DNA of 60,967 nucleotides from Candidatus Nanopelagicales bacterium. GTDB lineage: Bacteria > Actinomycetota > Actinomycetes > S36-B12. Positions 40,657-60,967 of the stretch are shown in pieces. The stretch is from contig JBAYUM010000001.1 of assembly GCA_041675125.1 (NCBI GenBank), positions 1 through 60,967 on the forward strand, given 5' to 3'. Each line of letters begins with the position of its first letter. Positions within the stretch are counted from its first letter, which is position 1. The translations under genes and the position numbers were made by a program. The notes under the pieces are model-generated. The model saw only the letters and a program-made list of their open reading frames with translations. It was not told where the DNA came from and did not search any database.

Positions 40657-41397
40657 ATGCAAGAATCCCATGATATGACTGCCGATCCGGAGGCGGTGCC
40701 CCTGCAGGCACCCGCGCCGCGCAAGCGTAATCCTCGTGGTTCGCTGAACCCAGAGGTCATTCTGGCCGAGGCCTTCCGACTCTGCCGCGAGGAGACTCTC
40801 GACGAGTTGAGCATGCCCAAGCTGGCCAGGCGGCTCGGCGTGGGCGTCACCAGCCTCTACTGGTACTTCCACACCAAGGAAGAGCTCCTCCAGGTGATGC
40901 TCGAGCAGGTGGCCCATGAGTTCCTCCATGCGCTGCCGGATTACGACTCGCTGCCCTGGGATGAGCACTTCCGCCGCTACTTCACCCAGATGCGACGCAT
41001 CTTCCTGGCCAATGAGGTCATCTGCGACTTCCTGGTGATGCGCACCCATATGTCGATCATGAACCCCGGGCAGTTCTTCATCGAGCGTCTCAATCGGGAG
41101 GTCGGAGTGCTCCTCGACGCCGGCTTCGCGCCGGATATCGCCACTCGTGGGTACCAGGCGATGTCGGTCTACACCACGGGTTCGGTTCAGAAGATCCGTC
41201 AACTGCAGATTCGTGGCGAGAACACAGAAGGCAAGATGTTCCCAATCGACGATATGGAGACCATGCAGTCAATCGCCGACAAGTACCCGAACCTGCAGCT
41301 GACCGCCCCGTACTGGCACCGCACCTACTCGACCAATATCGACTATGAGGTCGGCCTCAACCTCATCATCGACGGGCTTCGCACGCACTTGAAGTAG
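40657..41397 (+). CDS. TetR-family transcriptional regulator
   Basis: 246-aa ORF. The HTH is ILAEAFRLCREETLDELSMPKLARRLGVGVTSLYWYFHTKEELL. Confidence 0.9.
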   Translation: MQESHDMTADPEAVPLQAPAPRKRNPRGSLNPEVILAEAFRLCREETLDELSMPKLARRLGVGVTSLYWYFHTKEELLQVMLEQVAHEFLHALPDYDSLPWDEHFRRYFTQMRRIFLANEVICDFLVMRTHMSIMNPGQFFIERLNREVGVLLDAGFAPDIATRGYQAMSVYTTGSVQKIRQLQIRGENTEGKMFPIDDMETMQSIADKYPNLQLTAPYWHRTYSTNIDYEVGLNLIIDGLRTHLK

Positions 41398-41409
41398 CCG
41401 GTTGAAATA

Positions 41410-41443
41410 AGGAAAGGCCCCGACGTGAGTCGGGGCCTTTCCT
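41410..41443. terminator. Bidirectional hairpin between convergent tetR and acyl-CoA dehydrogenase genes
   Basis: AGGAAAGGCCCCGAC-gtga-GTCGGGGCCTTTCCT is a perfect 15-bp stem, read directly. Confidence 0.7.
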
Positions 41444-41456
41444 GTTGACCGAGTTC

Positions 41457-42587
41457 TTACAGACCGATCAGATCGGCGATGCGGCGCTTGTGGTCTGCCG
41501 GCGTGCCGAACAGCTGGCGATCGACCATCGTGCGGCGCAGGTAGAGGTGGCAGTCGTGCTCCCACGTCACGCCGAGGCCACCGTGCATCTGCACGCAGTC
41601 CTGGATGATCTGAACGGCCTTGGTTCCGACGTAGGCCTTGGCAACGCTGGCCAGACGCCCTGCGTTGTCATCGCGATCGTTGACGGCCTTGACGGCTGCA
41701 TCCGTTGTCGCCATGCAGCACTCAAGCCAGGTGCGCATATCCGAGAAACGGTGCTTGAGCGCTTGGTAGGACGCGAGAGGACGGCCGAAGGAGTAGCGAT
41801 CGAAAGCCCACTGAACAGTGAACTCGAACACGCGATCGATCGCACCGCACATCTCAGCGGACTGCAGAGTGATGGCCACCTGGAACATGCGCTCGACGAT
41901 GTCGGCTGAGGTTGCCTCCGTGCCGACCATTGCCTCAGCAGGCACTGTCACGCCATCGAACCGGATGGTCGCGTAGTTGCGGACGAAGTCCAGGGAGTCA
42001 ACCGGCTCGACCGTGACGCCGTCGGCATCGGTTGGCACGAGGAACAGTGCAACACCTGAATCAGTCTTTGCCGACACCAGCACGACATTGGCGACGTCGC
42101 CGACCTCGACACGATCCTTGACACCGGTGATGACGTAGTTGCCGCCGTTCTTTGCGGCCGTGGTTCCGGGATTGAGCGGATCCCAGTGACCCTTGGGCTC
42201 ATAGGCGGCCCAACTGCCAATGCTCTCGCCGGACATCAGGCCCTCGATTGCCTCGCTGTGGTCGGGGCCGCTTGCAGCGCCCTCGACCAGGCCAGCGATC
42301 ACGGTGTTGACGGGCAACAGCGGTCCCGGGCTGACCAGGCGACCGAACTCCTCGGCGACAATGACCAGATCCTGGAATCCATTGCCCGAGATGCTGCCGC
42401 CACCGAGGTCTTCAGGAACAAGCAGCGCTGCCCAGCCGAGCTCGGCACCCTGTGCCCAGAACTCGGGGGGGAAACCTCCACCGGCCTTGTTGAGCTCGCG
42501 CACCTTCTCAACAGGTGCCTCGGTCTCGAGGAACTTCACGGTCGTGTTGCGGAAAAGCTTCTGGTCCTCAGTGAGTTGCAGGTCCAT
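41457..42587 (-). CDS. Acyl-CoA dehydrogenase family protein (376 aa)
   Basis: It has the ACAD N-terminal, middle and C-terminal layout (MDLQLTEDQKLFRNT..., GSWAAYEP..., KAYVGTKAVQIIQDCVQMHGGLG). It lies 66 bp downstream of the second ACAD. Confidence 0.9.
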   Translation of the reverse strand: MDLQLTEDQKLFRNTTVKFLETEAPVEKVRELNKAGGGFPPEFWAQGAELGWAALLVPEDLGGGSISGNGFQDLVIVAEEFGRLVSPGPLLPVNTVIAGLVEGAASGPDHSEAIEGLMSGESIGSWAAYEPKGHWDPLNPGTTAAKNGGNYVITGVKDRVEVGDVANVVLVSAKTDSGVALFLVPTDADGVTVEPVDSLDFVRNYATIRFDGVTVPAEAMVGTEATSADIVERMFQVAITLQSAEMCGAIDRVFEFTVQWAFDRYSFGRPLASYQALKHRFSDMRTWLECCMATTDAAVKAVNDRDDNAGRLASVAKAYVGTKAVQIIQDCVQMHGGLGVTWEHDCHLYLRRTMVDRQLFGTPADHKRRIADLIGL

Positions 42588-42653
42588 GCGGACTCCTCAA
42601 TTCTTTCTTCGCCCTTGCGAGCAATTGGTCGATGACAAGTGAACGGGACGCTC

Positions 42654-43895
42654 TCAGCGTCCGCGGCGAACCTCACGGAACGGAACATCGCGGTCAGCAG
42701 CAGCCTCACGCGGCATCATCAGCACGCGCTCGGAGATCATGTTGCGGCTCATCTCCGAAGAACCGCCGCCGAGGCTTGCGCCTTGGCGCATGAGGTACGA
42801 GACACCGATCGAACGCAGGTATCCGTCGCCCTCAGGCACGCTCGTGACGGCTTCATCGCCAGCGATGTCGAACATGATGTCCTGCTTGGTCTGAGGAATC
42901 TCAGCATGTGCAAGGCGCATCATCGAGCTGGCCATCGCCGGGTACTCACCCGAAGTCATGCCGATCGTGATGCGCTTGATCAACTGGTTGTTGACGACGT
43001 CCTGGGCGTGAACCCAGCCGACGAGCTCACGAGTCGCCGGATCCTTGTCCTTGCCGACCTGGCGGGCCAGATTCTCGATGCTCAGGCCAGCTGCGTTTCC
43101 GCGTGAAGGCGCACGACCGCTGACATAGGGCGATCCGCCGCCGACTGCCTGGCGCTCGTAGAACAACTGCCGCTGACCGACGGTCCAGCCGTCGTTCTCA
43201 GTGCCCACGAGATTCTCGGCAGGGACCACGAGGTCGGTGAAGAACTCCTCGCAGAACTCGTCCGAGCCATCAACCATGCGCACGCGGTTGAGGTGGGTCT
43301 GTGGGTCATGGACGGGAACGATGATCATCGAGAGGCCACGGTGCTTAGGCGCATCCCAGTCGGTGCGCACGAGACAGGTGGCGTAGTCCGCTGCATAGGC
43401 GAAGGTGCTCCACGTCTTCTGACCGTTGATGACGTAGGTGTCACCATCGCGCTGGGCACGGGTCAGCAGGCCCGCGAGATCAGAGCCTCCGCTTGGCTCC
43501 GAGAGGAACTGGCACAGGATGATCTCGCCGGAGATCGCGCCGCGCAGGTACTTCTGCTTCTGCTCTTCGCTGCCCATGTCGAGCAACATGCCCGAGCAGA
43601 TGCCCAATGATGGGACGTTCAGCCGGAGTGGCATCTCATAGGGGAGCGACTCCTCGGTGAATGCAGCCTGGTGCGCTGGGGTGAGGCCCTGACCGCCGTA
43701 CTCCTTGGGGAAGCACAGACCTGCGAAACCGCCGGCGAAGAGCTTCTTCTGCAGTTCGCGGTGCTCAACCCACTCGCGATCGGCGACCCGGTTGGTGTTG
43801 TATTCCTTGTTCGGATCCAGCTTTGGCATGTTGTCTGCGAGCCAAGCACGAGCGCGGATGCGGAAATCCTCAACCGATTCAATCTGGTCTGACAT
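42654..43895 (-). CDS. Acyl-CoA dehydrogenase family protein (413 aa)
   Basis: LSEPSGGSDLAGLLTRAQRDGDTYVINGQKTWSTFA (ACAD middle-domain signature) and GGGSSEMSRNMISERVL near the C-terminus. Confidence 0.9.
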   Translation of the reverse strand: MSDQIESVEDFRIRARAWLADNMPKLDPNKEYNTNRVADREWVEHRELQKKLFAGGFAGLCFPKEYGGQGLTPAHQAAFTEESLPYEMPLRLNVPSLGICSGMLLDMGSEEQKQKYLRGAISGEIILCQFLSEPSGGSDLAGLLTRAQRDGDTYVINGQKTWSTFAYAADYATCLVRTDWDAPKHRGLSMIIVPVHDPQTHLNRVRMVDGSDEFCEEFFTDLVVPAENLVGTENDGWTVGQRQLFYERQAVGGGSPYVSGRAPSRGNAAGLSIENLARQVGKDKDPATRELVGWVHAQDVVNNQLIKRITIGMTSGEYPAMASSMMRLAHAEIPQTKQDIMFDIAGDEAVTSVPEGDGYLRSIGVSYLMRQGASLGGGSSEMSRNMISERVLMMPREAAADRDVPFREVRRGR

Positions 43896-43913
43896 TTACT
43901 CCCCAACTCTGCG

Positions 43914-43935
43914 GTGACCAAGGGGTATTGGTCAC
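43914..43935. promoter_or_regulatory. Inverted repeat GTGACCAA-N6-TTGGTCAC upstream of the acyl-CoA dehydrogenase pair (candidate TetR-type operator)
   Basis: Read directly. The 8-bp arms are perfect and start 19 bp upstream of the ACAD start codon (43895), inside the 197-bp divergent region shared with moxR. Confidence 0.4.
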
Positions 43936-44092: not shown

Positions 44093-45004
44093 ATGTCCGC
44101 CACGCCCAACCCCGCCCCATCAGTGATGGCCTCCGCCGTTGCCGCCTTTCCGAATATCTCGGAAGTACAGGCGCGACTGGCTGCCGTCGGTTACGTGGCC
44201 GATCCCCATATCGCCGGAGTCGTCTCGCTGGCCAGCCAGCTCGGCAAGCCCCTGCTCGCCGAGGGTCCTGCGGGCACAGGCAAGACCGAACTCGCCAAGG
44301 CGATCAGCCGTGCGCTGGGTGCTCGACTCATCCGACTTCAGTGCTACGAGGGCCTGGACGAGTCGCGCGCACTCTACGAATGGGACTATCGCAAGCAGCT
44401 GCTGCGCATCCAGGCCGTGCGCCAGGAGGCCGCTGGCGACTGGAATGCCATCGAGGATGACATCTTCGGCGAGGAGTACCTGCTGCATCGACCACTGCTT
44501 GAGGCCATTCAAGCCGAGGACGACGTCGTGCTGCTGATCGACGAGGTCGATCGCCTCGACATCGAGACCGAGGCGCTCCTGCTGGAGATCCTGTCGGACT
44601 TCCAGGTCTCCATTCCAGAACTCGGCACCGTTCATGCCCGTCAGCACCCGCTCGTCGTGCTGACCTCGAACAACAGCCGTGATCTCTCCGAGGCGCTCAA
44701 GCGCCGGTGCCTGTTCATGCACGTGGGCTACCCCACGGTCGAGCGCGAGCGCGAGATCATCCTCGCTGCGGTTCCAGGCATCACCGAGAACCTGGCCGAG
44801 CAGGTCGCGCGCATCGTTCGCACCCTGCGCGATCTCAACCTGAAGAAGAGCCCATCGGTCTCCGAGACCATTGACTGGGCCCGGGCGCTCGTGCTTCAAG
44901 GCAAGGCGGACGTGACCACCGATATCGTCATTGAGCACCTCTCAGTGCTGCTGAAGCATCAGACAGACATTGAGAAGGCCACCGAGGAACTCGCTGGGGC
45001 ATGA
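44093..45004 (+). CDS. MoxR-family AAA+ ATPase (CoxD/NorQ-like)
   Basis: 303-aa ORF with AAGGAG upstream. Walker A is EGPAGTGKTELAKA and Walker B is VVLLIDEVDR. It has the YEWDYRKQLLRIQ insert typical of this MoxR subgroup. Confidence 0.9.
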   Translation: MSATPNPAPSVMASAVAAFPNISEVQARLAAVGYVADPHIAGVVSLASQLGKPLLAEGPAGTGKTELAKAISRALGARLIRLQCYEGLDESRALYEWDYRKQLLRIQAVRQEAAGDWNAIEDDIFGEEYLLHRPLLEAIQAEDDVVLLIDEVDRLDIETEALLLEILSDFQVSIPELGTVHARQHPLVVLTSNNSRDLSEALKRRCLFMHVGYPTVEREREIILAAVPGITENLAEQVARIVRTLRDLNLKKSPSVSETIDWARALVLQGKADVTTDIVIEHLSVLLKHQTDIEKATEELAGA

Positions 45005-45697: not shown

Positions 45698-47089
45698 ATG
45701 CTTTCAACAGTTGAGGGACTCGTTCGCGAACTTCGCACGATTGGCATCCCCGTCTCGACAACGGAGCACATCGACGCCGCTCGGGCCTTGAAGGTCATTG
45801 ACATCAGTGACCGCTCGCAGGTCAAGGCGGCACTCTCAGCAACCATGATCAAGCGCATCGAGCACATGAAGACCTTCGACACGGTCTTCGACCTGTTCTT
45901 CTCGGGACTGGCGCAGTCGGAGATCACCTTCGAACTCGCCGAGGGTGGGCAGGACAACAGCATCGAGGCAATGCTCAACGCCCTCGACGATGACCAACTG
46001 CACGAGATGCTCGTCGATGCCACGGCAGCCAATGACGAACTCATGGTCAATGCCCTGGTGCAGGTGTTCGTCAATCGCAAGGCCAATATCCAGCAAGGCG
46101 CACAGGTTGCGGGCAACCTCTACGTGTTTCGCGTCCTGCGGGCGCTCGACTTGCCCGGCATCCGCGAAGAGCTCATCGACCGCGAGCAGATCGACCCGCA
46201 GAGCCCCGGCGCTGACCTTCAGCAGCGAATCGCCGAGAGCGATGCCGACCACAAGGTCGAGACCTTGCAGCAGAAGGTCGAGGCCGCAGTGCGTGCCCAA
46301 CTCGTCGCTGACCGAGGACCCAGTGCGGTCGCGCGTTCACTTCGATCGAAACTGCCGGAGGATATCGACTTCCTCACCGGATCGACCGCTGAGATCGAAG
46401 CACTCGAATGGACTCTCGCCCCCCTTCCGATCCAGCTCGCCCAGAAGCTTGCCCAGAAGCGATCACATGGCCGCCGCGGCGCAATTGACTTCCGTGGCAC
46501 CGTCCGTCATTCGATGTCCACCGGCGGCGTTCCTGTCGACATCGCCTTCAAGAAGCCTCATCCGCCGAAGCCCGAACTGATCGTGCTCGCTGACATCTCG
46601 GGTTCTGTCGCATCTTTCGCGACATTCACGCTCCAGCTCACATTCGCTATCCGGTCGCAGTTCCGAGCGGTCCGCAGCTTCGTCTTCATCGACGGCATCG
46701 ATGAGGTCACCGACATCATGTCCACGGCTGACAACATCTCGCAGGCCGCCCAGCGCATCGATGAGGAGAAGAAGGGATTCTCTCTCGACGGTCGCTCGGA
46801 CTACGGATCAGCCTTCAAGATCTTCCACAAGCGCTGGGGCCAGCAGATCACCAGCCGCAGCATCGTCCTTATTCTCGGCGACGGTCGCTCGAACTACCGT
46901 CAGCCGAATGCAGACGCCGTCGAATTCATGCACAAGCGTGCGCACCGGGTGTACTGGTTGAATCCTGAGCGCGAGGTGAGCTGGAACGAGGGCGACTCGA
47001 TCATCGCCAAGTACGCCCCGTACTGCAATTCGGTTTTCGAGTGCAGAAATGTTCGGCAACTGAAAGCATTCATCGAAGAACTCGACTAG
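45698..47089 (+). CDS. VWA domain protein, CoxE-like partner of MoxR ATPases
   Basis: 463-aa ORF. The C-terminal VWA domain has a MIDAS-type LADISGSVASF and LILGDGRSNY ... VYWLNPE, characteristic of CoxE-family proteins. Confidence 0.85.
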   Translation: MLSTVEGLVRELRTIGIPVSTTEHIDAARALKVIDISDRSQVKAALSATMIKRIEHMKTFDTVFDLFFSGLAQSEITFELAEGGQDNSIEAMLNALDDDQLHEMLVDATAANDELMVNALVQVFVNRKANIQQGAQVAGNLYVFRVLRALDLPGIREELIDREQIDPQSPGADLQQRIAESDADHKVETLQQKVEAAVRAQLVADRGPSAVARSLRSKLPEDIDFLTGSTAEIEALEWTLAPLPIQLAQKLAQKRSHGRRGAIDFRGTVRHSMSTGGVPVDIAFKKPHPPKPELIVLADISGSVASFATFTLQLTFAIRSQFRAVRSFVFIDGIDEVTDIMSTADNISQAAQRIDEEKKGFSLDGRSDYGSAFKIFHKRWGQQITSRSIVLILGDGRSNYRQPNADAVEFMHKRAHRVYWLNPEREVSWNEGDSIIAKYAPYCNSVFECRNVRQLKAFIEELD

Positions 47090-47122: not shown

Positions 47123-47644
47123 ATGAGCAACATCTCGGAGGCCATGAAGGCCGCTGTGGGCACAGTCACTGCTCGCACCACGAGTTATCCCATCAGCGAA
47201 TCCGACATTCGCAAGTGGGCGCTCGCCGTCTACTGGCCCGACAAGCCACCGGCATACTTCATCGATTCTGCTGAGGCGGCCAAGACAGTGCACGGCGGAA
47301 TCGTCGCGCCAGAGGACTTCAACCCGTTCGCCTGGATCAGCGCCGGCCACGAGTCCCTCATCAAGAACTCCCTGCGCGCAGGGACGAATGACCCCGACTC
47401 GACCGAGAAGTCGCTCGGCATCGAAGGTCCAGGCCTGACCTTCATGCTCAACGGCGGTCTCGTGTGCGAGTACGGCGTCCGCATGCGTGCCGGCGACGTC
47501 ATCACGAGCGAGAGTTCGGTCGGCGAGTACAGCGAGCGCGAGGGTCGCCTTGGGCTCATGCTCTTCAGCCGCAGCATCTCGACTTGGACAAACCAGAAGG
47601 GTGAGATGGTCAAGCGGACCACCGGCACCCTGATTCGGTACTAG
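47123..47644 (+). CDS. MaoC_N / FAS1-like dehydratase N-terminal-type hot-dog protein (hydratase subunit A-like), copy 1
   Basis: 173-aa ORF with YPISESDIRKWALAVYWPDKPP ... PGLTFMLNGG ... LMLFSRSISTWTNQKGEMV. It is paired with the following MaoC gene, as in HadA/HadB-type heterodimers. Confidence 0.75.
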   Translation: MSNISEAMKAAVGTVTARTTSYPISESDIRKWALAVYWPDKPPAYFIDSAEAAKTVHGGIVAPEDFNPFAWISAGHESLIKNSLRAGTNDPDSTEKSLGIEGPGLTFMLNGGLVCEYGVRMRAGDVITSESSVGEYSEREGRLGLMLFSRSISTWTNQKGEMVKRTTGTLIRY

Positions 47645-47655
47645 GAGGAATGAAC

Positions 47656-48048
47656 ATGACTGTCAACGTTGGCGATGCCATCCCAACCTTCACCCGCGCC
47701 ACGGGCTTTGCGAACTGGAACCGCTATGCAGCGGTGAACGATGAGTTCGTACCGATCCACATGGACGACGAGGCCGGCGCCGCAGCTGGCAACGGCGGGG
47801 CGTTCGGCATGGGCAACCTCCAGTGGGCCTACCTGCACAACATGCTCCGCGACTGGATGGGGCCGAACGGCGAGATCCTCAGCATCGAGGTGCAGTTCCG
47901 CAGCCCGAACGTCAAGGGCCAGACCGTGACCGCCCATGGCGTGGTCACCGCTGTCGAGGGCGATGTCGTGACCCTCGACGTCTGGACCGAGCAGCAGGAG
48001 GGCACCAAGCTCGCACCGGGCTCGGCCAAGGTCCGCCTGGCCAAGTAG
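47656..48048 (+). CDS. MaoC-like (R)-specific enoyl-CoA hydratase hot-dog subunit, copy 1
   Basis: NWNRYAAVNDEFVPIHMDDEAGAAAG carries the D-x(4)-H-type hydratase motif region. ATG 47656 lies 7 nt after AGGAGG (47643-47648). The track start at 47650 is only 1 nt after the SD. Confidence 0.8.
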   Translation: MTVNVGDAIPTFTRATGFANWNRYAAVNDEFVPIHMDDEAGAAAGNGGAFGMGNLQWAYLHNMLRDWMGPNGEILSIEVQFRSPNVKGQTVTAHGVVTAVEGDVVTLDVWTEQQEGTKLAPGSAKVRLAK

Positions 48049-48135: not shown

Positions 48136-48633
48136 ATGACCGAGTCGTACCTCACTGAGGTGGTGCTGCAGGCCGCGGGCCGCGAGTGCTCGCGTGCGAC
48201 CAGTTACCCGATCGAGGCCTCCGACATCCGCAAGTGGGCTCTCGCCTCCTACTGGCCAGAGCAGCCCCCGCAGCACTTCATCGATGCCGAGGTCGCCCCG
48301 GAGGACTTCGACCCCTTCGCCTGGGGCCCTGCGCACTACGAGTCACTGCTGCCCGACGACGATGGCAGCGTCATCGTCCGCCACGGCATCAACGAACGCG
48401 CCCTCGGCTTCCCCGACTGGAAGTTCCGGGCTGGCCTCAATGGCGGCATGAACTGCACCTATGGGATGCGCATGCACGTCGGTGACGTCATCACGGACAC
48501 CAAGTCATGCGGTGAATACACCGAGCGCCAGGGCCGCAATGGCCTCATGCTCATCACCCAGTCGATCAGTACCTGGACCAATCAGAATGGCGAGGTCGTC
48601 AAGCGCACGATCAACTCCGGGATCAGGTTCTGA
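48136..48633 (+). CDS. MaoC_N / FAS1-like dehydratase N-terminal-type hot-dog protein, copy 2
   Basis: 165-aa paralogue of 47123-47644 (YPIEASDIRKWALASYWPEQPP ... LMLITQSISTWTNQNGEVV). Confidence 0.75.
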   Translation: MTESYLTEVVLQAAGRECSRATSYPIEASDIRKWALASYWPEQPPQHFIDAEVAPEDFDPFAWGPAHYESLLPDDDGSVIVRHGINERALGFPDWKFRAGLNGGMNCTYGMRMHVGDVITDTKSCGEYTERQGRNGLMLITQSISTWTNQNGEVVKRTINSGIRF

Positions 48634-49034
48634 GCACCATCGCAGTCGCCGCGATCGGCGACCTTGTTCGCGATGTCTCAATCCAGTCCGGGGTCGACAA
48701 TTGGAACAGGTTCGCGGCGGTCAACGATGAATTCCTGCCCCACTCCATGGACGACTCCGCCGCGCGCGCGGAAGGCTTCCCCGCAGCAATAGGCATGGGC
48801 AACTACCAGTGGGCGATCCTGCATCGCATGCTTCGTGGGTACACCGGACCCAACGGCGTGATTGTTCGGGTCGAAATCAAATTCCGACGCCCGAACGTCA
48901 AGGGGCAGATCCTGACACCCATGGGCCGCGTGACCTCTGTCGACGGCCGGGTCATCGGTCTGGATGTATGGACCGAGGACCAGACCGGCGCGCGTCTTGG
49001 TGAGGGAACAGCCCAAGTCGTCCTGGCAGCGTAG
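48630..49034 (+). CDS. MaoC-like hydratase subunit, copy 2; 5' end lacks a canonical start codon
   Basis: The frame is open from 48516. Residues encoded upstream of the first ATG (48747) align with copy 1 (IGDLVRDVSIQSGVDNWNRFAAVNDEFLPHSMDD versus VGDAIPTFTRATGFANWNRYAAVNDEFVPIHMDD). No ATG, GTG or TTG occurs in frame between 48516 and 48747. Candidate starts are a CTG at 48630, which overlaps the upstream TGA as CTGA, or an ATC at 48639. Confidence 0.55.
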   Translation: MSTIAVAAIGDLVRDVSIQSGVDNWNRFAAVNDEFLPHSMDDSAARAEGFPAAIGMGNYQWAILHRMLRGYTGPNGVIVRVEIKFRRPNVKGQILTPMGRVTSVDGRVIGLDVWTEDQTGARLGEGTAQVVLAA

Positions 49035-51237: not shown

Positions 51238-51320
51238 CAGTTCCCAGATCACAGTTCCACTCTGAGTCCACGAGTACTCGCCGCACTCGCGCCGAGACCG
51301 TATCAATGGCTGGAGGAAAT

Positions 51321-52627: not shown

Positions 52628-53563
52628 CTACTTGGCGAATGGGTCGCCAGGGATCTCCTCGTCAGTGAAGAACCAAGGTGCACCGAGGGTGTCCTCGACG
52701 TTGCAGACAATGAGGTTGGTGCGTGGACGGGTCGTGCGAATGCCCGCCTTGTTGAGCCATGCGTTTGCCGACTCGATGTCCTTGACCTTCCAGCGCAGGC
52801 TGTAGATGAAGTTGCCGTACTTCTCGACGTGGCGGCCGAAATCGGTATCGGCCTCGAGAGGCTGGGCGAGCTGCAGAAGGCAATCGCCGAGCTGCATCGT
52901 GTAGTACTTGCACTGCAGATCGTCGTCGATGCCCTCTTGCAGCGGAACTGCCTGCATGATGTCGACGTACGTCTTCACTGCTGCGTCAAGATCCTTGACA
53001 CCGAGCGTGACGTAGCTGAAGCGATCGATCGTCATCGGGTGCTGCTCGAACAGGCGCATGAGCTCCGTGTAGGTATCAGCGTCCTTGGGGTCATTCGGCA
53101 TGTCGATCTTGCACAACTCGACCATGAGGCCGGCGGTGTCGCGCGGGCTCGGGTAGAAGTAGTGCGTGTCCTCGTCGAGCTTCTCGATCTTGCCGCCGCC
53201 AGGTGCACCGATGTAGATGCCCTTCTCGAGCATGCGGGCTGCGAGGCCGGACAGGTCATCGACCTTGTAGCCCACCGAGTGCAGGTGCTCACCGAACTTC
53301 GAGTAGAACTTGCCAACGGGCTTGTTCACATCGACCGGGAAGTTCGGGGCCATGGTCTCGATGCAGACATCGCCGACCATGAGCAATGACGCCCAGCGGT
53401 CTTCTGGCGGGAGATAGCTCGGCACGTCAACGGTCATGAAGCCGAAGGCCCCGAAGACACGGTGGTAGAGCTCGTTGAGCTTGTTCACGTCATCCGACAT
53501 GTGGATGACGTGGATCATGTTGCCGATGCCGTAGTCACCGGTCTTCTTGTAGTCGCGCTTCAT
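52628..53563 (-). CDS. Two-domain VOC-fold protein, paralogue 3
   Basis: 311-aa ORF. By my hand count of a gapless alignment it has 58 differences from paralogue 1 (about 81 % identity). It includes an identical run MAPNFPVDVNKPVGKFYSKFGEHLHSVGYKV. Confidence 0.75.
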   Translation of the reverse strand: MKRDYKKTGDYGIGNMIHVIHMSDDVNKLNELYHRVFGAFGFMTVDVPSYLPPEDRWASLLMVGDVCIETMAPNFPVDVNKPVGKFYSKFGEHLHSVGYKVDDLSGLAARMLEKGIYIGAPGGGKIEKLDEDTHYFYPSPRDTAGLMVELCKIDMPNDPKDADTYTELMRLFEQHPMTIDRFSYVTLGVKDLDAAVKTYVDIMQAVPLQEGIDDDLQCKYYTMQLGDCLLQLAQPLEADTDFGRHVEKYGNFIYSLRWKVKDIESANAWLNKAGIRTTRPRTNLIVCNVEDTLGAPWFFTDEEIPGDPFAK

Positions 53564-54004: not shown

Positions 54005-54859
54005 TTACGAGTCGTAGCGGTAGAAGCCGCGTCCGGTCTTGCGGCCGAGCCAGCCGAGCCGCACGTACTGCGTGAGCATCTTCGGCGGGAAGTACTTGGG
54101 ATCCTTCGTCTCGTTGTAGATCGAGACGCCCTGGGCGTGCACGATGTCCAGGCCGACGAGGTCGGCCAGGCGGAACGGGCCCATCGGGTGGTTGAAGCCG
54201 AGGGTCATGACGTCATCGATCGACTCCATCGGAGCCACGCCGCTCTCGAAGGCACGGATGGCATCATTGAAGAACGGGGTGATGAGCAGGTTGCCGATGA
54301 AGCCGGGCACGTCGTTGACGACCACCGGACTCTTGCCCATGCGCTGGGCGAGCTCCACCATCGCGGCCACGTCGTCCTCGGACGTGACCGGAGTCTTGAT
54401 GACCTCGACGAGCTTCATGGCCGGCACCGGGTTGAAGAAGTGCAGGCCCACGACGCGCTCAGGGCGGGTGGTGGCCGCAGCCAGGACCACCAGGGGAATC
54501 GTGGACGTGTTGGACGCGATGAAGGTGTTGGGCCCGACGAGCTTGTCGATGCGCCCCAGGATGTCGTTCTTGAGCTCCACATCCTCGTAGACCGCTTCAA
54601 CCACGATGTCGGCACCGGCGACATCGCCCAGGTCGGTGGTAATGGTGAACAGCTCGCGTGCCTTGGCCGCTACCTCCTCGGTGATCTTGCCGCGCTTGAG
54701 GGTGCCGTCGAGGCCTGCGTTGACCCGGTCACGCGCACGCTGGGCGCCGGCCTCACTGGTCTCGACGCCGACGACCTCGATACCGGTCTGCGCCGCGACT
54801 TGGATGATGCCGGTGCCCATGACGCCGCAGCCGACGACTGCCATCTTGTTGACTGTCAC
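54005..54859 (-). CDS. 3-hydroxyacyl-CoA (3-hydroxybutyryl-CoA-type) dehydrogenase
   Basis: KMAVVGCGVMGTGI (NAD fold), GLHFFNPVPAMKLVEVI and PGFIGNLL. GTG 54859 lies 8 nt after AAGGAG. The track start at 54898 is 13 codons upstream. Confidence 0.9.
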   Translation of the reverse strand: MTVNKMAVVGCGVMGTGIIQVAAQTGIEVVGVETSEAGAQRARDRVNAGLDGTLKRGKITEEVAAKARELFTITTDLGDVAGADIVVEAVYEDVELKNDILGRIDKLVGPNTFIASNTSTIPLVVLAAATTRPERVVGLHFFNPVPAMKLVEVIKTPVTSEDDVAAMVELAQRMGKSPVVVNDVPGFIGNLLITPFFNDAIRAFESGVAPMESIDDVMTLGFNHPMGPFRLADLVGLDIVHAQGVSIYNETKDPKYFPPKMLTQYVRLGWLGRKTGRGFYRYDS

Positions 54860-54932
54860 GTGAATGTCTCCTTGATCGCGCAGGCCGCGGCCGCGCATGG
54901 TCCGTCTGGTGATGATGGGACGCTAGTACAGA

Positions 54933-54980: not shown

Positions 54981-56159
54981 CTAGGCCTTGGGAACCTCGA
55001 TGATGACGGCGCCGCCCTGGCCACCGCCGGCACACATGGTCGACAGGCCGATGCCGCCGCCACGACGACGAAGCTCGTGGATGAGCGTTGCGATCTGGCG
55101 GGTGCCCGACGCTGCCACGGGGTGGCCCAGTGAGCAGCCACTGCCGTAGATGTTCACCTTCTCCTCATCGATGCCCATGATCTTGCATGCGGCTACGGGG
55201 ACGGAGGCGAAGGCCTCATTGATCTCCCACAGGTCGATGTCCTCGACCTTGAGGCCGGCACGCTCGAGCACCTTCTCAGCAGCGGCAAGGGCTCCCATGC
55301 CGGTGTACTTGGGATCAACGCCAGCAGCGGCCCATGCCTTGACCGTGGCAAGTGGGGTCAGGTTGTGCTCGGCGGCGTACTTGTCGCTGACCACGACTAC
55401 GGCCGAGGCTGCGTCGTTGACGCCCGACGAGTTGCCTGCCGTGATCGAGAAGTCCTCGATCTCCGGGTGCAAGGGCTTCAGGGTGGCCATCTTCTCCAGC
55501 GTCGAACTGCCACGTGGGTGCTCATCGACTGCGAACTCGACCGTCGAGCCGTCCTTGGTCTTCACCGTGATGGGACGGATCTCGTCGAGGAACTTGCCGT
55601 CCTCGATCGCCTTGGCCGCACGCATGTGCGAACGCCAGGCCCACTTGTCCATGTCCTCGCGGCTCAGGCCGGCCTTCTGTGCAACGTTCCAGCCAACGGA
55701 CAGGCTCACGTCGTCCGTCGCGTCCTCGCGGTGGGGGAATGTCGGGGCCATGCGGGTCTCGAACTCGTCCTCGGTGCCCAGGACGCGGAAGACGGTACGG
55801 GGGCCTGCGGACGAGGCCTGGACACCGCCGGCGACGACGACGTCCTCCATGCCTGCCTTGATCGAGGCGGCGGCATTGCCCAGTGCAGCAAGGCTTGAGG
55901 CGCAGTGGCGGTTGATCGCCTGGCCGGAGACATCCTGAAGGCCGTTGGCTACCGCGGCGTAGCGAGCGAGGTCGCCGCCGCCATAGCCTGACTCGCCGAG
56001 GATGACGTCGTCAACGTCATTGCCATCGATGCCCGCGGCCTTGATGGCCTCACCAATGATGAAAGTGGCCAGATCCTCGGCAGAGGTCTCGCTCAGGGTG
56101 CCCTTGCGAGCGGTGCCAATCGGGGTACGAACTGCACTGACAATGACGGCTTCGGTCAC
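54981..56159 (-). CDS. Acetyl-CoA C-acyltransferase (degradative thiolase)
   Basis: 392-aa ORF with a GTG start. It has NRHCASSLAAL (nucleophilic Cys), GCSLGHPVAASG and MCAGGGQGGAVIIE (C-terminal His/Cys blocks). Confidence 0.9.
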   Translation of the reverse strand: MTEAVIVSAVRTPIGTARKGTLSETSAEDLATFIIGEAIKAAGIDGNDVDDVILGESGYGGGDLARYAAVANGLQDVSGQAINRHCASSLAALGNAAASIKAGMEDVVVAGGVQASSAGPRTVFRVLGTEDEFETRMAPTFPHREDATDDVSLSVGWNVAQKAGLSREDMDKWAWRSHMRAAKAIEDGKFLDEIRPITVKTKDGSTVEFAVDEHPRGSSTLEKMATLKPLHPEIEDFSITAGNSSGVNDAASAVVVVSDKYAAEHNLTPLATVKAWAAAGVDPKYTGMGALAAAEKVLERAGLKVEDIDLWEINEAFASVPVAACKIMGIDEEKVNIYGSGCSLGHPVAASGTRQIATLIHELRRRGGGIGLSTMCAGGGQGGAVIIEVPKA

Positions 56160-56398: not shown

Positions 56399-57163
56399 AT
56401 GGAGCTCAAGGGCGCATCCGCCATCGTGACCGGCGGAGCCGGCGGCTTCGGCGAGGCAACTGTCCGCCGTCTGGTCGACAAGGGCGTCAAGGTCGTCATC
56501 GCCGACCTGCACGACGAGCGGGCGACCGCACTGGCCAAGGAGCTGGGCTCGGCCGTCCAGTACGTCCGCACCGACATCACCGACGAGCAGAACGTCATCG
56601 AGGCCATCAATGCAGCACAGGCCATGGCCCCTCTCCGCGTGGCCGTTGCAGTGCACGGCGGCCCAGCAGCCGGCAAGCGCTTCGTCGGTCGCAATGGCGA
56701 GACCTACCCGGTCGAAACCTTCCGTCGCACGGTCGAGATCTTCCTGGTCGGCAACTTCACGGTGCTCAGCCGCGCAGCAGCGGTCATGAGTCAGAACGAG
56801 CCCTTGGCGGACAACCAGCGCGGCGTGTGCATCGGCACCGCATCCATCGCCGGCTTCGAGGGCCAGGTCGGCCAGTCCGACTACTCGGCAGCCAAGGGCG
56901 GCGTCATCGGCATGACCCTCACCGCGGCACGTGACCTCGGTCCAGCCGGCATCCGCGTCATGACCATCGCACCAGGCACCTTCCACACGTACGCCTACGG
57001 CGATGTTGATGCAGCCACCCTGAACGAGCGCTTTGGCGCTCTCATCCCCAACCCCAAGCGCATGGGACACCCGGATGAGTACGCGCAGCTCGCACTCCAG
57101 ATCTGCGAGAACGACTTCCTCAACGGCTACACCATCCGCCTCGATGGAGCCCAGCGCTTCTAA
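56399..57163 (+). CDS. SDR, type-2 3-hydroxyacyl-CoA dehydrogenase (HSD17B10-like), tandem copy 1
   Basis: 254-aa ORF with TGGAGGFG, NEPLADNQRGVCIGTASIAGFEGQVGQSDYSAAKGG and FLNGYTIRLDGAQRF. It is colinear with my recollection of human HSD10. Confidence 0.85.
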   Translation: MELKGASAIVTGGAGGFGEATVRRLVDKGVKVVIADLHDERATALAKELGSAVQYVRTDITDEQNVIEAINAAQAMAPLRVAVAVHGGPAAGKRFVGRNGETYPVETFRRTVEIFLVGNFTVLSRAAAVMSQNEPLADNQRGVCIGTASIAGFEGQVGQSDYSAAKGGVIGMTLTAARDLGPAGIRVMTIAPGTFHTYAYGDVDAATLNERFGALIPNPKRMGHPDEYAQLALQICENDFLNGYTIRLDGAQRF

Positions 57164-57176
57164 GCAGGACCCAGAA

Positions 57177-57291: not shown

Positions 57292-58068
57292 ATGGAACTC
57301 AAGGGCGCATCCGCCATCGTGACCGGCGGAGCCGGCGGCTTCGGCGAGGCAACAGTCCGCCGTCTGGTCGACAAGGGCGCCAAGGTCGTCATCGCCGACC
57401 TGCACGACGAGCGCGCCAACGCACTCGCCAAGGAGCTGGGCTCGGCCGTCCAGTACGTCCGCACCGACATCACCGACGAGCAGAACGTCATCGAGGCCGT
57501 CAATGCGGCCCAGGAGATGGCCCCGCTGCGCGTGGCCGTTGCAGTGCATGGCGGCATGGGCGGCCCCGGCGGCGGCGCGGCGCGCATGGTCGACCGCCAC
57601 GGCGTGCCGATCTCGCTGGAGTCCTTCCGATTCTCGGTCGAGATCTACCTCATCGGTCACTTCACCGTGATCTCCCGCGCGGCTGCGGTCATGAGCCAGA
57701 ACGAGCCGGATGACGACAACCAGCGTGGTGTCTGCATCGGCACGGCCTCCATCGCCGGCTTCGAGGGCCAGGTCGGCCAGGTGTCGTACTCGGCGGCCAA
57801 GGGCGGCGTCATCGGCATGACCCTCACCGCGGCACGTGACCTGGGCCCGGCTGGGATCCGCGTGATGACCATCGCGCCAGGCACCTTCCACACCTATGCC
57901 TACGGCGATATGCCGATCGAGCAGCTCAACGAGCGCTTCGCCTCACTCATCCCCAACCCCAAGCGCATGGGTCGGGCCGATGAGTACGCGCAGCTGGCCA
58001 TGCAGATCGTCGAGAACAACTTCCTCAACGGCTACACCATCCGCCTCGATGGAGCGCAGCGCTTCTGA
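57292..58068 (+). CDS. SDR, type-2 3-hydroxyacyl-CoA dehydrogenase (HSD17B10-like), tandem copy 2
   Basis: 258-aa paralogue of copy 1. The first 264 nt differ from copy 1 at 16 positions by hand count. Confidence 0.85.
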   Translation: MELKGASAIVTGGAGGFGEATVRRLVDKGAKVVIADLHDERANALAKELGSAVQYVRTDITDEQNVIEAVNAAQEMAPLRVAVAVHGGMGGPGGGAARMVDRHGVPISLESFRFSVEIYLIGHFTVISRAAAVMSQNEPDDDNQRGVCIGTASIAGFEGQVGQVSYSAAKGGVIGMTLTAARDLGPAGIRVMTIAPGTFHTYAYGDMPIEQLNERFASLIPNPKRMGRADEYAQLAMQIVENNFLNGYTIRLDGAQRF

Positions 58069-58081
58069 CGAACACCAGATG

Positions 58082-58119
58082 AAACGGCCGACGGGATCTC
58101 CCGTCGGCCGTTTCTCTTG
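58082..58119 (+). terminator. Rho-independent-type terminator after SDR copy 2
   Basis: AAACGGCCGACGG-gatctc-CCGTCGGCCGTTT followed by CTCTTG, read directly. Confidence 0.7.
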
Positions 58120-58149
58120 GCCCATCAGTGCATGCGTAAGGTTTGAGCA

Positions 58150-58926
58150 ATGGCTGGCATTCTGGACATTCTGACAATTGATCAAATCGATGACGATCAC
58201 TTCATCACGCGAGTAGTCGACAAGGAGTTCCCGGGGCTGTACGGCGGTCAGGTCGCCGCACAATCACTGTTGGCCGCCTGTCGCACGATCAGCGAGCATC
58301 AGGTGCCTCACTCGCTGCATGCCTACTTCCTGAGAGCCGGGCGCAGTGCCGTACCCATCGAGCTCCAGGTCTTCCGCGACCGCGATGGTCGCTCCTATGC
58401 GGCGCGGCGCATCGTTGCAACCCAGTCCGGTGAGGTCATCTTCAACATGTCCGCGTCATTTCACGAACTTGAGGATGGGCCAGACGTGCAGGCGGTCTCG
58501 ATGCCGTCGGTCCTGCCACCGCTCACCGAGAACTCCCAGCCAGTGCCGCGCGGATCAGATGACATCGAACTGGTCAATGCCTCCCCAAACGATGAACATG
58601 AGATGCCGTATCGGACATGGACCCGCGCAAGGATCGAGCTACCCGACGATCCTCATATCCATGCCTGCGTGCTCACCTACGTCTCGGATTTCTACACCGG
58701 ACTCGTGCAGTTCGAGGAGTTCCCGAAGAACCCACGCGTCGCGAGCCTGGACCATGCGATGTGGTTCTATCGCGCGGTCAACATGAACCACTGGCACCTG
58801 ATGGACTGGCAGGCCCAGTCCATGGCCAATGGCCGAGGGCACTACGTCGGTCATATCTATGACGACCAGGGCCGACTCGTCGCCGGCCTCGGTCAGGAGA
58901 TGGTCGTCCGTGCAGCACGCACTTAG
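58150..58926 (+). CDS. tesB: Acyl-CoA thioesterase II (double hot-dog, TesB-like)
   Basis: 258-aa ORF with LYGGQVAAQSLLAA and SLHAYFLRAG, and the C-terminal half SLDHAMWFYR. These are typical TesB blocks. Confidence 0.8.
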   Translation: MAGILDILTIDQIDDDHFITRVVDKEFPGLYGGQVAAQSLLAACRTISEHQVPHSLHAYFLRAGRSAVPIELQVFRDRDGRSYAARRIVATQSGEVIFNMSASFHELEDGPDVQAVSMPSVLPPLTENSQPVPRGSDDIELVNASPNDEHEMPYRTWTRARIELPDDPHIHACVLTYVSDFYTGLVQFEEFPKNPRVASLDHAMWFYRAVNMNHWHLMDWQAQSMANGRGHYVGHIYDDQGRLVAGLGQEMVVRAART

Positions 58927-59732
58927 TTGATCGCGGGCGAGATCCCTGCATCCACATGAAAGTTCGTGCCATTGATGATGTCTGCGCGTGGGCTTGCAAG
59001 CATGGTCACGGCGTAGGCGATATCGGCGACTTCGCCCACCCGGCCAACGGTTTGCCCTGTTCCCTTCACGAAATACTCCTCGGCCTTGGGGATGTCATCA
59101 CCCCAGCCGCGCTTCTGCGCGAAATTGCCGAGGAACTCCATCAGGCCCTCCGTACGGATCATTCCCGGTGACACGCAGTTCACCGTGACACCCGTCATGC
59201 GCAGCGTCTTGGAAAGCCCGAGGGACAGATTCACCATTGCCGCTTTCGCAGGGCCGTAGTCGGGCTGTGCGGATGTGGGCGTGATCGCTGCTGCGGTGGC
59301 AATGTTGATGATCCGGCCCCAGCCACGCTCCTTCATCGCCGGCGCCAAAGCCTGGATCAGGCGGAAGGCTGCCACGGTGTTGGCCTCGTAGGTGGCGACC
59401 AGGACTTCTGGGGTGACGCTGAAGAAGGACGGATCGGGAGTATCGGAACTGCCACCAGCGTTGTTCACGAGGATGTCGATGCCGCCGAAAGCGGCAAGGG
59501 CGGCCTCAGCCACTGCTGCCGCACCCTCATTGGTCGAGAGGTCACCGATCGCAACCGCGGCCTGACCGCCTGACTCCCGAATTCGCGCAGCAACGGCTTC
59601 GGCGCGCTCACTGTTGCGCCCGTGCACCACGACCCGGGCACCCTCGGCAGCCAACTCGGCTGCAATGCCAGCACCAATGCCACTGCTGCTACCCGTGACC
59701 AGCGCACGGCGTCCAGTGAGGTCAAGCTCCAT
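58923..59732 (-). CDS. SDR-family oxidoreductase
   Basis: 269-aa ORF with VTGSSSGIGAGIA, NNAG and YGPAKAA (Y-x3-K). The convergent 4-nt overlap with tesB is read directly. Confidence 0.85.
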   Translation of the reverse strand: MELDLTGRRALVTGSSSGIGAGIAAELAAEGARVVVHGRNSERAEAVAARIRESGGQAAVAIGDLSTNEGAAAVAEAALAAFGGIDILVNNAGGSSDTPDPSFFSVTPEVLVATYEANTVAAFRLIQALAPAMKERGWGRIINIATAAAITPTSAQPDYGPAKAAMVNLSLGLSKTLRMTGVTVNCVSPGMIRTEGLMEFLGNFAQKRGWGDDIPKAEEYFVKGTGQTVGRVGEVADIAYAVTMLASPRADIINGTNFHVDAGISPAIN

Positions 59733-59894
59733 GAATTGATCCTTCTTCCTTCATCGCACTTCGAACTTCGTGAAAATCGATACTAATAGCACAAAACAGA
59801 CTTAGCGGATTTTCCTTGGAAGGTCCTACCGAAAGCCTTACCGTGACCGGTAGGTGAACCGTATTGGATCGCGTTACCCGAGGAAAGGAAATCC

Positions 59895-60967
59895 GTGGAC
59901 ATCAACGACATGATCTTGCTCAGCATCGATGATCACATCATCGAGGCGCCAACGACGTTCGACAAGCACATGCCAGCCAAGTACAAGGACCAGGCTCCCA
60001 GGCTCGTTGCCGATCCTGACAACCCAGCGATCGATCGTTGGGAGTTCCAGGGGACTGCAGCGTTCACCGGCGGGCTGGGAGCTGTTGTCTCGTGGCCCAA
60101 GGAAGAGTGGGGCTTCGAGCCAACCGGCCTCGCCGAGATGCGGCCGGGCACATACGACATTCACGAGCGAGTGCGCGACATGAACGTCAACGGCGTGCTG
60201 GCCGGCATGAACTTTCCGACCTTCCCCGGCTTCGCCGGCACGCACCTTGCGAACATGCCTGACAAGCAGCTGGCTCTTGCGGCGATCCAGGCCTACAACG
60301 ACTTCCTGATGGATGAGCTTGTCGGCTCATACCCGGGTCGCTTCATTCCGATGGGCATCATCCCGTTCTTCGACATCGAGGAGTCGGTCAAGGAGATCCA
60401 TCGTCTTGCAAAGAAGGGCTGCGTATCCATCACGATGCCCGAGACTCCCTACGGCATCGGTCAGCCTGACTTTGCGACCGGTCACTGGGATCCAGTGTTC
60501 AAGGCACTCGTCGACACCAACATGGTCGCCAGCATGCACATCGGTGGTGGCTTCGGCCTGATCCAGCGCCCGCCGTCAGCCCTGGTCGACGACATCGTGA
60601 TCATCGCCGCTCTGGTGTCCACGATCGCAGCGACGGACATCCTGACCAGCGGTGTCATCAAGAGATTCCCTGACATCAAGTTCGCGATGAGCGAGGGCGG
60701 CCTGGGCTGGATCCCGTTCCTGCTCGACCGGATGGACCGCCACATGGTCAACCACTCCTGGACGCACCTGGACTCACTGCCCAAGGGAATGTCGCCAACT
60801 GAGGTCTGGAAGAAGAACTTCCTCGCCTGCTTCATCACCGAACCCACGGCGCTGCGCACGCGCGATCGCTACGGTGTTGAGACCATCGCCTGGGAATGCG
60901 ACTACCCGCACTCCGACTGCACCTGGCCGTACTCGCCAGAGCTCCTGCTCAAGGAACTAAATGCGGC
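59895..60967 (+). CDS. Amidohydrolase_2 family protein, second copy; C-terminus outside the window
   Basis: The frame is open from GTG 59895 (AGGAAAGGAA upstream; ATG 59910 is an alternative) to the window edge, so it is absent from the ORF track. It has LSIDDHIIEAP, MHIGGG and ECDYPHSD metal-site blocks. It is a paralogue class of 51321-52550. Confidence 0.8.
   Translation, partial: MDINDMILLSIDDHIIEAPTTFDKHMPAKYKDQAPRLVADPDNPAIDRWEFQGTAAFTGGLGAVVSWPKEEWGFEPTGLAEMRPGTYDIHERVRDMNVNGVLAGMNFPTFPGFAGTHLANMPDKQLALAAIQAYNDFLMDELVGSYPGRFIPMGIIPFFDIEESVKEIHRLAKKGCVSITMPETPYGIGQPDFATGHWDPVFKALVDTNMVASMHIGGGFGLIQRPPSALVDDIVIIAALVSTIAATDILTSGVIKRFPDIKFAMSEGGLGWIPFLLDRMDRHMVNHSWTHLDSLPKGMSPTEVWKKNFLACFITEPTALRTRDRYGVETIAWECDYPHSDCTWPYSPELLLKELNA

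Follow-up and report, generated by a model that had tools for sequence, protein, structure and literature searches.

The window analysed here is a 60,967-nt stretch of DNA from a Candidatus Nanopelagicales bacterium. It makes up contig C1, in full, of a metagenome-assembled genome (MAG; 2.17 Mb in 245 contigs, 92.6% complete), so that position 60967 marks where the assembly stops, not where a gene cluster does. From position 40657 to that break runs a block of genes that encode a TetR-family regulator, a heteromeric acyl-CoA dehydrogenase (ACAD) pair, an AAA+ ATPase and a VWA protein with an α/β-hydrolase between them, two hot-dog hydratase pairs, three vicinal oxygen chelate (VOC) proteins, an EthD-like protein, a 3-hydroxyacyl-CoA dehydrogenase (3HCDH), a thiolase, two HSD10-type short-chain dehydrogenases/reductases (SDRs) and a further SDR, a TesB-type thioesterase, and two PF04909 proteins, AH1 and the contig-terminal AH2, the latter a putative oxygenase related to DitZ. 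Genes were called from an open reading frame (ORF) map guided by GC content at third codon positions together with Pfam, NCBIfam and PDB searches, and selected proteins were modelled with AlphaFold2 (AF2) and compared by Foldseek (Table 1). In these searches every gene listed in an earlier note on this DNA was found in place, including the electron transfer flavoprotein (ETF) and EtfD genes directly upstream of the block (36471–40532, minus strand); the 210-aa α/β-hydrolase gene between the AAA and VWA genes had been missing from that list. The nearest named relatives of the window's proteins are those of freshwater 'Actinomycetota', 'Acidimicrobiia' and 'Nanopelagicales' MAGs.

A role of the block in CoA-thioester catabolism, on a core of β-oxidation enzymes of the steroid type, is supported. 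The block shares with the actinobacterial steroid enzymes (ChsE, IpdE, ChsH, Ltp2/DUF35, Hsd4A/B and Rv1144) heteromeric ACADs, heteromeric MaoC hydratases, HSD10-like SDRs and, on the contig that continues it, an SCPx-type thiolase with a DUF35 partner; however, identities are around 30%, the steroid equivalog scores all fall far under cut-off and the hallmarks are absent. The small ACAD has PimD and IpdE2 as its top NCBIfam models, both under cut-off, and the large subunit finds its best PDB matches in the heteromeric steroid-type ACADs Tcur3483 (6WY8) and 4X28, while the tandem SDRs match 3PPI, human HSD10 1SO8 and Rv1144 at E = 1e-59 to 1e-68. No KshA, KstD or HsaA-D was found in the block, and no Rieske, P450, Mce or IpdAB-type gene lies within it; genome-wide (93% complete) there are no MlaD/Mce (PF02470) or PF01144 (IpdAB-type) proteins, two Rieske-domain ORFs (147 and 373 aa, on other contigs) and five P450s. 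The lack of hallmark steroid genes, observed before, is thus upheld for the block.

Predicted oxygenase genes at and beyond the contig end

The PF04909 proteins of the block, labelled 'amidohydrolase_2', had been read as decarboxylases or lactonases, an assignment that is not supported for AH2 and its paralogues. Rhodococcus DitZ (PDB 8UYR) is a diiron-dependent diterpenoid hydroxylase, studied with dehydroabietic acid, and belongs to the amidohydrolase-related dinuclear oxygenases (AROs), which carry an N-terminal D-x-H and a C-terminal D-x-P-H-x-D/E motif absent from characterised PF04909 hydrolases and decarboxylases; use of two irons is tied to the Asp within D-x-H and to a non-aromatic residue after the motif His (PMC13154177). 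AH2 matches DitZ at E = 3.9e-157 over residues 3–357 with 60% identity. Its residues 9–16, SIDDHIIE, align with SIDDHVVE of DitZ, and DYPHSD at residue 336 supplies the motif D-x-P-H-x-[D/E] with at least ~200 residues before it; the Asp inside D-x-H and the Ser after the motif His are those of the diiron-type class. A full-length paralogue on contig C14 reaches E = 2.7e-193, the C14 copies are 64–66% identical to 8UYR and a copy in the genus relatives G002 and G008 is 71% identical, and six PF04909 genes of this genome carry both ARO motifs.

AH2 and its paralogues are accordingly predicted to be DitZ-type diiron hydroxylases, an assignment in which, on alignment and motifs, we have good confidence. 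Within the ARO superfamily (DitZ 8UYR, PtmU3, AibH2 and SfbO) the block copies align with DitZ end to end (60–66% identity); they differ from it in occurring as several tandem paralogues, inside a β-oxidation-type cluster without other dit genes. The earlier finding that hallmark aromatic ring-hydroxylating oxygenases are missing therefore holds for the classical families only, as a predicted ARO is present from 59895 to the contig end. At E<=1e-130, DitZ-like proteins were found in no genus besides the window's own among 401 sampled Actinomycetes genomes; elsewhere in actinomycetes, DitZ-like genes often adjoin genes for family III CoA-transferases, ACAD pairs and Ltp/DUF35.

AH1 has a D-x-H motif (DSH) but its C-terminal motif reads DIPHPT, with Thr for Asp/Glu, and because this final acidic residue is absent we do not file it as a canonical ARO; its PDB matches to DitZ and PtmU3 are weak. 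It sits elsewhere in the genus relatives G008 and G009 and is not a fixed member of the cluster. As a synteny anchor it was rejected: a scan of GTDB returned nine loci with almost no common neighbours, and the gene is mobile and multi-copy. On contig C10 (14123–16903) a paralogue of AH1 (70% identity, identical in both motifs) forms a divergent pair with a paralogue of the large ACAD (81%), an arrangement that also occurs in a 'Nanopelagicales' MAG (locus L006).

Positions 60898–60967 of C1 overlap positions 22675–22744 of contig C14 in 69 of 70 nt, where internal paralogues reach only 84%; the C-terminus of AH2, which C1 lacks, is found in the C14 tail, and G008 has the same gene order on one contig. 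The break between the two contigs falls within a tandem array of three DitZ-like genes, and the cluster goes on along C14 when that contig is reversed. On C14 lie two additional DitZ paralogues, another two AROs, a pair of crotonases, a second TetR regulator, two metallophosphoesterases and two DUF2889 proteins. It further encodes an SDR, an SCPx-type thiolase (Thiolase_C_1) and its ChsH2-type DUF35 partner, a LivK-type binding protein, an SRPBCC protein, an FMN reductase, a second SCPx-type thiolase, an MFE-2 hydratase, an Hsd4A-like SDR and, cut by the far contig end, a family III CoA-transferase. What had been described as a 20-kb island is thus a cluster of at least 47 kb, from etfBA/etfD through C14, that takes up more than 2% of the assembly. 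Its GC content within the block (0.58–0.66) is the same as in the remainder of the contig, and we dropped the reading as a horizontally transferred island because a compositional anomaly is absent.

A module shared with distant actinomycetes

The phylogenetic distribution of the gene set, which the earlier note had proposed as a check, takes in all 12 genomes of the window's genus and five distant actinomycete loci. Within the genus the block matches at ~73–86% nucleotide identity and is contiguous in G008 and G009, the EtfD-like gene adjoins the TetR gene in G008 too, and the copy number of the VOC and DitZ genes varies. At the DNA level the block was absent from the genomes sampled for other genera of the family and order, where VWA, VOC and DitZ-like proteins were not found either. 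The five distant loci, reached through 311-aa VOC homologues in a global search, belong to Streptomyces canus, Arthrobacter sp. MMS18-M83, Actinocorallia herbida, a UBA MAG and Jatrophihabitans sp. DSM 45814. Their shared module consists of an ACAD pair, the AAA ATPase, the α/β-hydrolase (frequently encoded on the other strand), the VWA protein, FAS1_DH and MaoC hydratases, a VOC protein, an EthD-like protein of ~110 aa and a carboxyltransferase, accompanied by 3HCDH and/or thiolase, HSD10-type SDR, aldehyde dehydrogenase, acyl-CoA synthetase, ARO and Ltp/DUF35 genes.

Identities of these foreign proteins to those of the window and C14 are 41–78%, save 36–40% for TetR, the EthD-like protein and one ACAD match. 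Hot-dog pair 1 is found in five of five clusters (47–65%) and the AAA ATPase in four (46–71%); the small ACAD shows 54–56% identity in three and the large one 57–58% in three and 38% in a fourth. Values for the remaining components are 61–68% (VOC), 41–46% (α/β-hydrolase), 45–47% (VWA), 68–70% (3HCDH), 62–66% (thiolase), 63–67% (HSD10-type SDR), 78% (Ltp-type thiolase) and 61% (DUF35). The S. canus cluster includes a TetR homologue (36% identity), and that of Jatrophihabitans an EtfD-like homologue (49%) and a TesB gene. A carboxyltransferase of 472–480 aa (Carboxyl_trans/ACCA) lies beside the EthD-like and VOC genes in all five; the window's genus has none and instead has two to three tandem VOC copies in its cluster. 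Such conserved synteny sets the gene grouping beyond chance, and the block is very probably one conserved catabolic cluster. Ring- and carboxyl-processing enzymes had been seen as grafted onto a β-oxidation core; the VOC, EthD-like, AAA, α/β-hydrolase and VWA proteins instead form, with the hot-dog and ACAD pairs, one module across actinomycete orders.

The VOC proteins had been counted among the ring- or carboxyl-processing enzymes, and their metal-site candidates argue against ring cleavage. An alignment of 32 sequences has H18, H21, E69, H93, H95 and E149 as invariant ligand candidates, all in the N-terminal barrel. They sit on strands β1, β4, β5 and β8, as is usual in glyoxalase I and methylmalonyl-CoA epimerase, and H18, E69, H95 and E149 make up the H-E(Q)-H-E tetrad; in the C-terminal barrel only H175 and H245 are conserved, with no invariant Glu and no 2-His-1-carboxylate site. 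The likeness to these two enzymes lies in an H/E/H/E tetrad within a single βαβββ-pair barrel, whereas the window's proteins are 311 aa long, possess a second, ligand-poor barrel and score far under the TIGR03081 cut-off (47–55 bits against 115, with the match confined to the C-terminal half). Sequence matches are solely to methylmalonyl-CoA epimerase and a glyoxalase. A fold search with the AF2 model (predicted local distance difference test, pLDDT, 93) returned the generic two-barrel VOCs 4-hydroxyphenylpyruvate dioxygenase (HPPD) and hydroxymandelate synthase (HmaS) at template modelling (TM) scores of 0.62–0.68 and 11–13% identity, which confirms the two-barrel architecture only and assigns no function. 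From the thioester setting, and from the carboxyltransferase gene that adjoins the VOC gene in other genomes, we infer an epimerase or isomerase that would catalyse proton transfer on an α-substituted acyl-CoA, ring cleavage being less likely. The family is small, with 32 matches at E<=1e-30 among 1.84 billion cluster representatives; among 251 Actinomycetes genomes it occurred in the window's genus only, and the homologues in cultured actinomycetes from the global search are 60–68% identical. A fourth VOC paralogue (70%) lies near recA on contig C8 (22912–26187), where a PF04909/ARO-like gene stands at the contig end.

The 110-aa EthD-like protein is modelled with similar confidence (pLDDT 92) and has the EthD proteins 2FTR and 3BF4 as its top PDB fold matches (E = 6e-5). 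Against Pfam EthD (PF07110) it scores 14.9 bits, under the cut-off of 22, and the Arthrobacter orthologue scores 22.3 bits. Its orthologues adjoin a VOC gene in five of five foreign clusters.

The AAA ATPase, α/β-hydrolase and VWA protein form a trio whose arrangement, with the hydrolase wedged in, recurs in Arthrobacter, Jatrophihabitans and the UBA MAG. Like the CoxD/CoxE, NorQ/NorD and BchI/BchD pairs, it combines an AAA+ ATPase with a VWA_CoxE partner; the difference is the short α/β-hydrolase gene between the two. BchO is a hydrolase whose gene accompanies bchI and bchD, the AAA+/VWA genes of Mg-chelatase, and by this analogy the arrangement would not be unique to the cluster; the wedge hydrolase itself matches the BchO model at 30 bits, among many weak α/β-hydrolase matches and too weakly to build on. 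Against the NCBIfam models MadB_ATPase (NF047784) and MadC (NF047783), the ATPase scores 317.6 bits (cut-off 475) and the VWA protein 173.5 bits (cut-off 600); a referent for the names MadB and MadC was not found in the literature, and we use them for nothing beyond these below-cut-off scores. A paralogous AAA–VWA pair without hydrolase (54–62% and 33–40% identity) occurs in many actinomycetes in the order obg-proB-proA-AAA-VWA-nadD-rsfS, and the VWA gene, tried as a synteny anchor in the 251 Actinomycetes genomes, led to this housekeeping pair and not to the catabolic cluster. By tblastn the window's genome has the cluster copy of AAA–VWA only, and the other genomes sampled from its order yielded no VWA homologue. 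The trio travels with ACAD, hydratase and VOC genes even without an ARO within 10 kb (loci L063 and L064), and in Actinocorallia, which has an adjoining ARO, a search of 10 kb showed no trio; its client is thus no likelier to be an oxygenase than a VOC or another enzyme.

Substrate class and competing explanations

In Pseudomonas, the dit cluster has an 'amidohydrolase' ORF beside genes for ACAD, CoA ligase, thiolase, 3HCDH and TetR (PMC10710418, Table S11). The block shares with the dit clusters of Pseudomonas abietaniphila and Paraburkholderia xenovorans a DitZ/ORF4-type oxygenase gene beside ACAD genes, together with thiolase, 3HCDH, SDR and TetR genes. Unlike them, it lacks the Rieske oxygenase DitA1A2A3, a DitC-type extradiol enzyme, the FAA-family proteins DitM/H/D and a P450, and it adds heteromeric ACAD and hydratase pairs, a VOC protein resembling methylmalonyl-CoA epimerase, the EthD-like protein and the trio. 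A gene-for-gene match to a described pathway would have counted against the earlier description of the block, and none was found, whether dit or steroid.

A bulky, branched or alicyclic acyl-CoA, proposed before, is upheld as the most plausible substrate class. The earlier note went on to call the substrate not deducible; the similarity to DitZ indicates diterpenoid-type acids, so it is not wholly undeducible. We propose, and give an even chance, that the cluster degrades a bulky methyl-branched or alicyclic terpenoid-type acid as a CoA ester, with diiron hydroxylases providing O2-dependent steps; for the substrate class itself, terpenoid-type acids that are diterpenoid/resin-acid-like or branched alicyclic, our confidence stops slightly short of even. 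In such a route the DitZ-type diiron oxygenases, of which three lie in tandem at the C1/C14 junction and more on C14, would hydroxylate unactivated carbons with O2 and so prepare or unblock the molecule. The steroid-type heteromeric ACAD would then pass electrons to the adjacent ETF/EtfD, the heteromeric MaoC-type hydratases would add water to the enoyl-CoA, and 3HCDH and the HSD10-type dehydrogenases would oxidise the 3-hydroxyacyl-CoA, after which the thiolase, with the SCPx-type thiolase/DUF35 and MFE-2 hydratase of C14, could complete β-oxidative or retro-aldol cycles. The two-barrel VOC probably epimerises or isomerises an α-substituted thioester, TesB would free dead-end CoA esters, and the trio probably serves in the maturation or remodelling of one of these enzymes.

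A bolder form of this proposal is tentative, and we consider it possible though doubtful: the conserved module of heteromeric ACAD and hydratase, two-barrel VOC, EthD-like protein and trio, joined by DitZ-type hydroxylases and, in soil actinomycetes, by the carboxyltransferase, would be an undescribed O2-dependent route for terpenoid-derived alicyclic acids whose quaternary or branched carbons are blocked, resin acids or carboxyl-rich alicyclic matter among them. The route would operate on CoA esters, independently of the Rieske/extradiol dit pathway, and a streamlined freshwater actinobacterial genus would be devoting more than 2% of its genome to it.

Several observations weigh against a dedicated terpenoid-acid pathway. 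The canonical dit genes DitA, DitC, DitM/H/D and DitQ are absent from the block and largely from the genome, no CoA ligase gene lies within the window, and DitZ has been studied as acting on the free acid and not on a CoA ester; with several DitZ-like paralogues, moreover, substrates may have diverged. The carboxyltransferase is the one core gene absent from the window's genus, in which the pathway may therefore be truncated or altered. The genome's sole classical thiolase, 3HCDH and ETF lie in the block, part of which may thus serve general fatty-acid oxidation. Finally, the block comprises at least eight transcription units in both orientations, and no shared operator or common palindrome was found across its intergenic regions.

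Among the alternatives, β-oxidation of acyclic methyl-branched isoprenoid acids (phytol, phytanate, pristanate or oligo-isoprenoids) fares best, although we regard it as unlikely. Diiron oxygenases would here hydroxylate blocked positions, and 2-methyl stereochemistry would fall to the VOC together with a racemase-like family III CoA-transferase. The gene set mirrors that of peroxisomal pristanate oxidation in its HSD10-type SDRs and, on C14, its MFE-2 hydratase, SCPx-type thiolases and family III CoA-transferase; the VOC metal site is of the epimerase type; and the nearest relatives are freshwater MAGs, from a habitat in which chlorophyll-derived phytol would be available. However, DitZ, the nearest relative of the oxygenases to have been characterised, has a tricyclic diterpenoid acid as its substrate, and polycyclic or very bulky substrates are what heteromeric ACADs of the ChsE/IpdE type and heteromeric hot-dog hydratases typically serve; neither an α-oxidation lyase nor a biotin carboxylase was seen.

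The IpdE/ChsE-type affinity of the ACAD pair, the ChsH/Had-like hydratases and the Rv1144-like SDR, together with Ltp/DUF35, the MFE-2 hydratase and the Hsd4A-like SDR on C14, would also suit a cluster for sterol or bile-acid side chains or for late, C/D-ring-like ring fragments. The lack of a Mce transporter and of an IpdAB-type CoA-transferase in a 93%-complete genome with only two Rieske proteins, the lack of any KshA, KstD or HsaA-D signal in the block and the far-below-cut-off scores of all steroid NCBIfam equivalogs make this quite improbable. We rate no higher the possibility that there is no single pathway here and that unrelated lineage-specific genes have collected around a general β-oxidation locus: the genome's only classical thiolase, 3HCDH, ETF and EtfD, the many separate transcription units and the variation of AH1 and VOC copy number within the genus would fit, but VOC, EthD-like, AAA/hydrolase/VWA, hot-dog and ACAD-pair genes co-travel with thiolase and 3HCDH genes in five distant actinomycete genomes. 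Very improbable is an aromatic or hydroaromatic ring-cleavage module, in which diiron oxygenases would make a diol, extradiol-type VOCs open it and the block's α/β-hydrolase cut the product: the VOCs have two barrels and HPPD and hydroxymandelate synthase as best fold matches, but their H/E/H/E set belongs to the N-terminal barrel, no 2-His-1-carboxylate set is conserved in the C-terminal one, which holds the iron in HPPD and extradiol enzymes, no sequence match to any extradiol dioxygenase exists, and the hydrolase is just 210 aa long and always inside the AAA–VWA pair.

Should degradation of terpenoid-type acids prove right, the cluster would give a genetic handle on the use of plant-derived terpenoid acids by abundant uncultured freshwater actinobacteria; the enzymology of terpenoid acids is little known beyond a few Pseudomonas and Paraburkholderia strains. 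AH2 appears to be a further case of an 'amidohydrolase' annotation hiding an oxygenase, and it shifts the pathway prediction from 'no oxygenase' to 'oxygen-dependent'. The analysis also defines three uncharacterised, co-inherited components present in culturable Arthrobacter and Streptomyces, namely the rare VOC family, the EthD-like protein and the AAA/hydrolase/VWA trio.

Gene inventory and intergenic sequences

Table 1. Genes of the block and of the ETF/EtfD region upstream of it (positions in the window).
Feature	Position	Strand	Evidence and remarks
etfA	36471-37427	-	Pfam ETF_alpha/ETF; single copy in genome
etfB	37479-38261	-	Pfam ETF; single copy in genome; ETF accepts ACAD electrons
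EtfD-like membrane Fe-S/CCG oxidoreductase	38325-40532	-	Pfam CCG and Fer4
TetR-family regulator	40657-41397	+	Pfam TetR_N, TetR_C_1
ACAD, small subunit of heteromeric pair	41457-42587	-	Pfam ACAD N, M and C domains
ACAD, large subunit, divergent C-terminal domain	42654-43895	-	Pfam N and M domains only; PimC-like
AAA+ ATPase, CoxD/GvpN/'MadB'-like class	44093-45004	+	Pfam AAA, AAA_5
α/β-hydrolase, 210 aa	45028-45660	-	Pfam Abhydrolase_1, Abhydrolase_6; GFSAG nucleophile motif
VWA protein, CoxE-type, partner of AAA ATPase	45698-47089	+	Pfam VWA_CoxE, E = 3.7e-43
Hot-dog hydratase pair 1	FAS1_DH-type 47123-47644; MaoC 47650-48048	+	Pfam
Hot-dog hydratase pair 2	FAS1_DH-type 48136-48633; MaoC-like ~48654-49034	+	Pfam
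VOC1	49145-50080	-	311 aa, two barrels; Pfam Glyoxalase, Glyoxalase_4
VOC2	50122-51057	-	True start shortens protein to 311 aa; Pfam Glyoxalase, Glyoxalase_4
AH1, PF04909	51321-52550	+	Pfam; true start shortens protein to ~409 aa
VOC3, third 311-aa paralogue	52628-53563	-	Pfam; 82% identical to VOC1
EthD-like ferredoxin-fold protein, 110 aa	53608-53940	-	AF2 and Foldseek
3HCDH	54005-54898	-	Pfam, NCBIfam
Thiolase	54981-56159	-	Pfam, NCBIfam
HSD10-type (type-2 3-hydroxyacyl-CoA dehydrogenase) SDRs, tandem	56399-57163; 57292-58068	+	Pfam adh_short
TesB-type acyl-CoA thioesterase II	58150-58926	+	Pfam; NCBIfam TIGR00189
Additional SDR	58923-59732	-	Pfam adh_short
AH2, DitZ-like, PF04909	59895-60967	+	Pfam Amidohydro_2 (TIM-barrel fold), E = 1.6e-15; cut by contig end

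Several gene models in Table 1 differ from the longest ORF. AH1 homologues align from about residue 39 of its long ORF, and a 237-aa plus-strand ORF at the α/β-hydrolase locus was rejected as a shadow ORF. The two hot-dog pairs are paralogues (50–55% identical); for the second MaoC-like gene (ORF 48516–49034) the paralogue alignment begins at ~48654, yet the first in-frame ATG, GTG or TTG is at 48747, so that either its start is non-canonical or the gene is decaying. The 3HCDH and the thiolase are each the sole copy of their own type in the genome.

Long GC-rich hairpins occur in six intergenic regions of the block. The 13-mer TTCCCAGATCACA occurs just twice in the whole genome (2.17 Mb), each time between divergent genes of the block, at 40568–40580 (etfD/TetR) and 51241–51253 (VOC2/AH1), and the regions upstream of the TetR and AH2 genes have TAGCACAAA and CCTACCGAAA in common, spaced 37 and 38 nt apart, respectively. 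These three sequences may be shared regulatory elements, at a level too weak for the claim of a regulon. A scan for consensus promoters and terminators gave counts no higher than in shuffled sequence and was uninformative. Upstream of the cluster, and unrelated to it, cydA and cydB at 29366–31815 encode a cytochrome bd oxidase.

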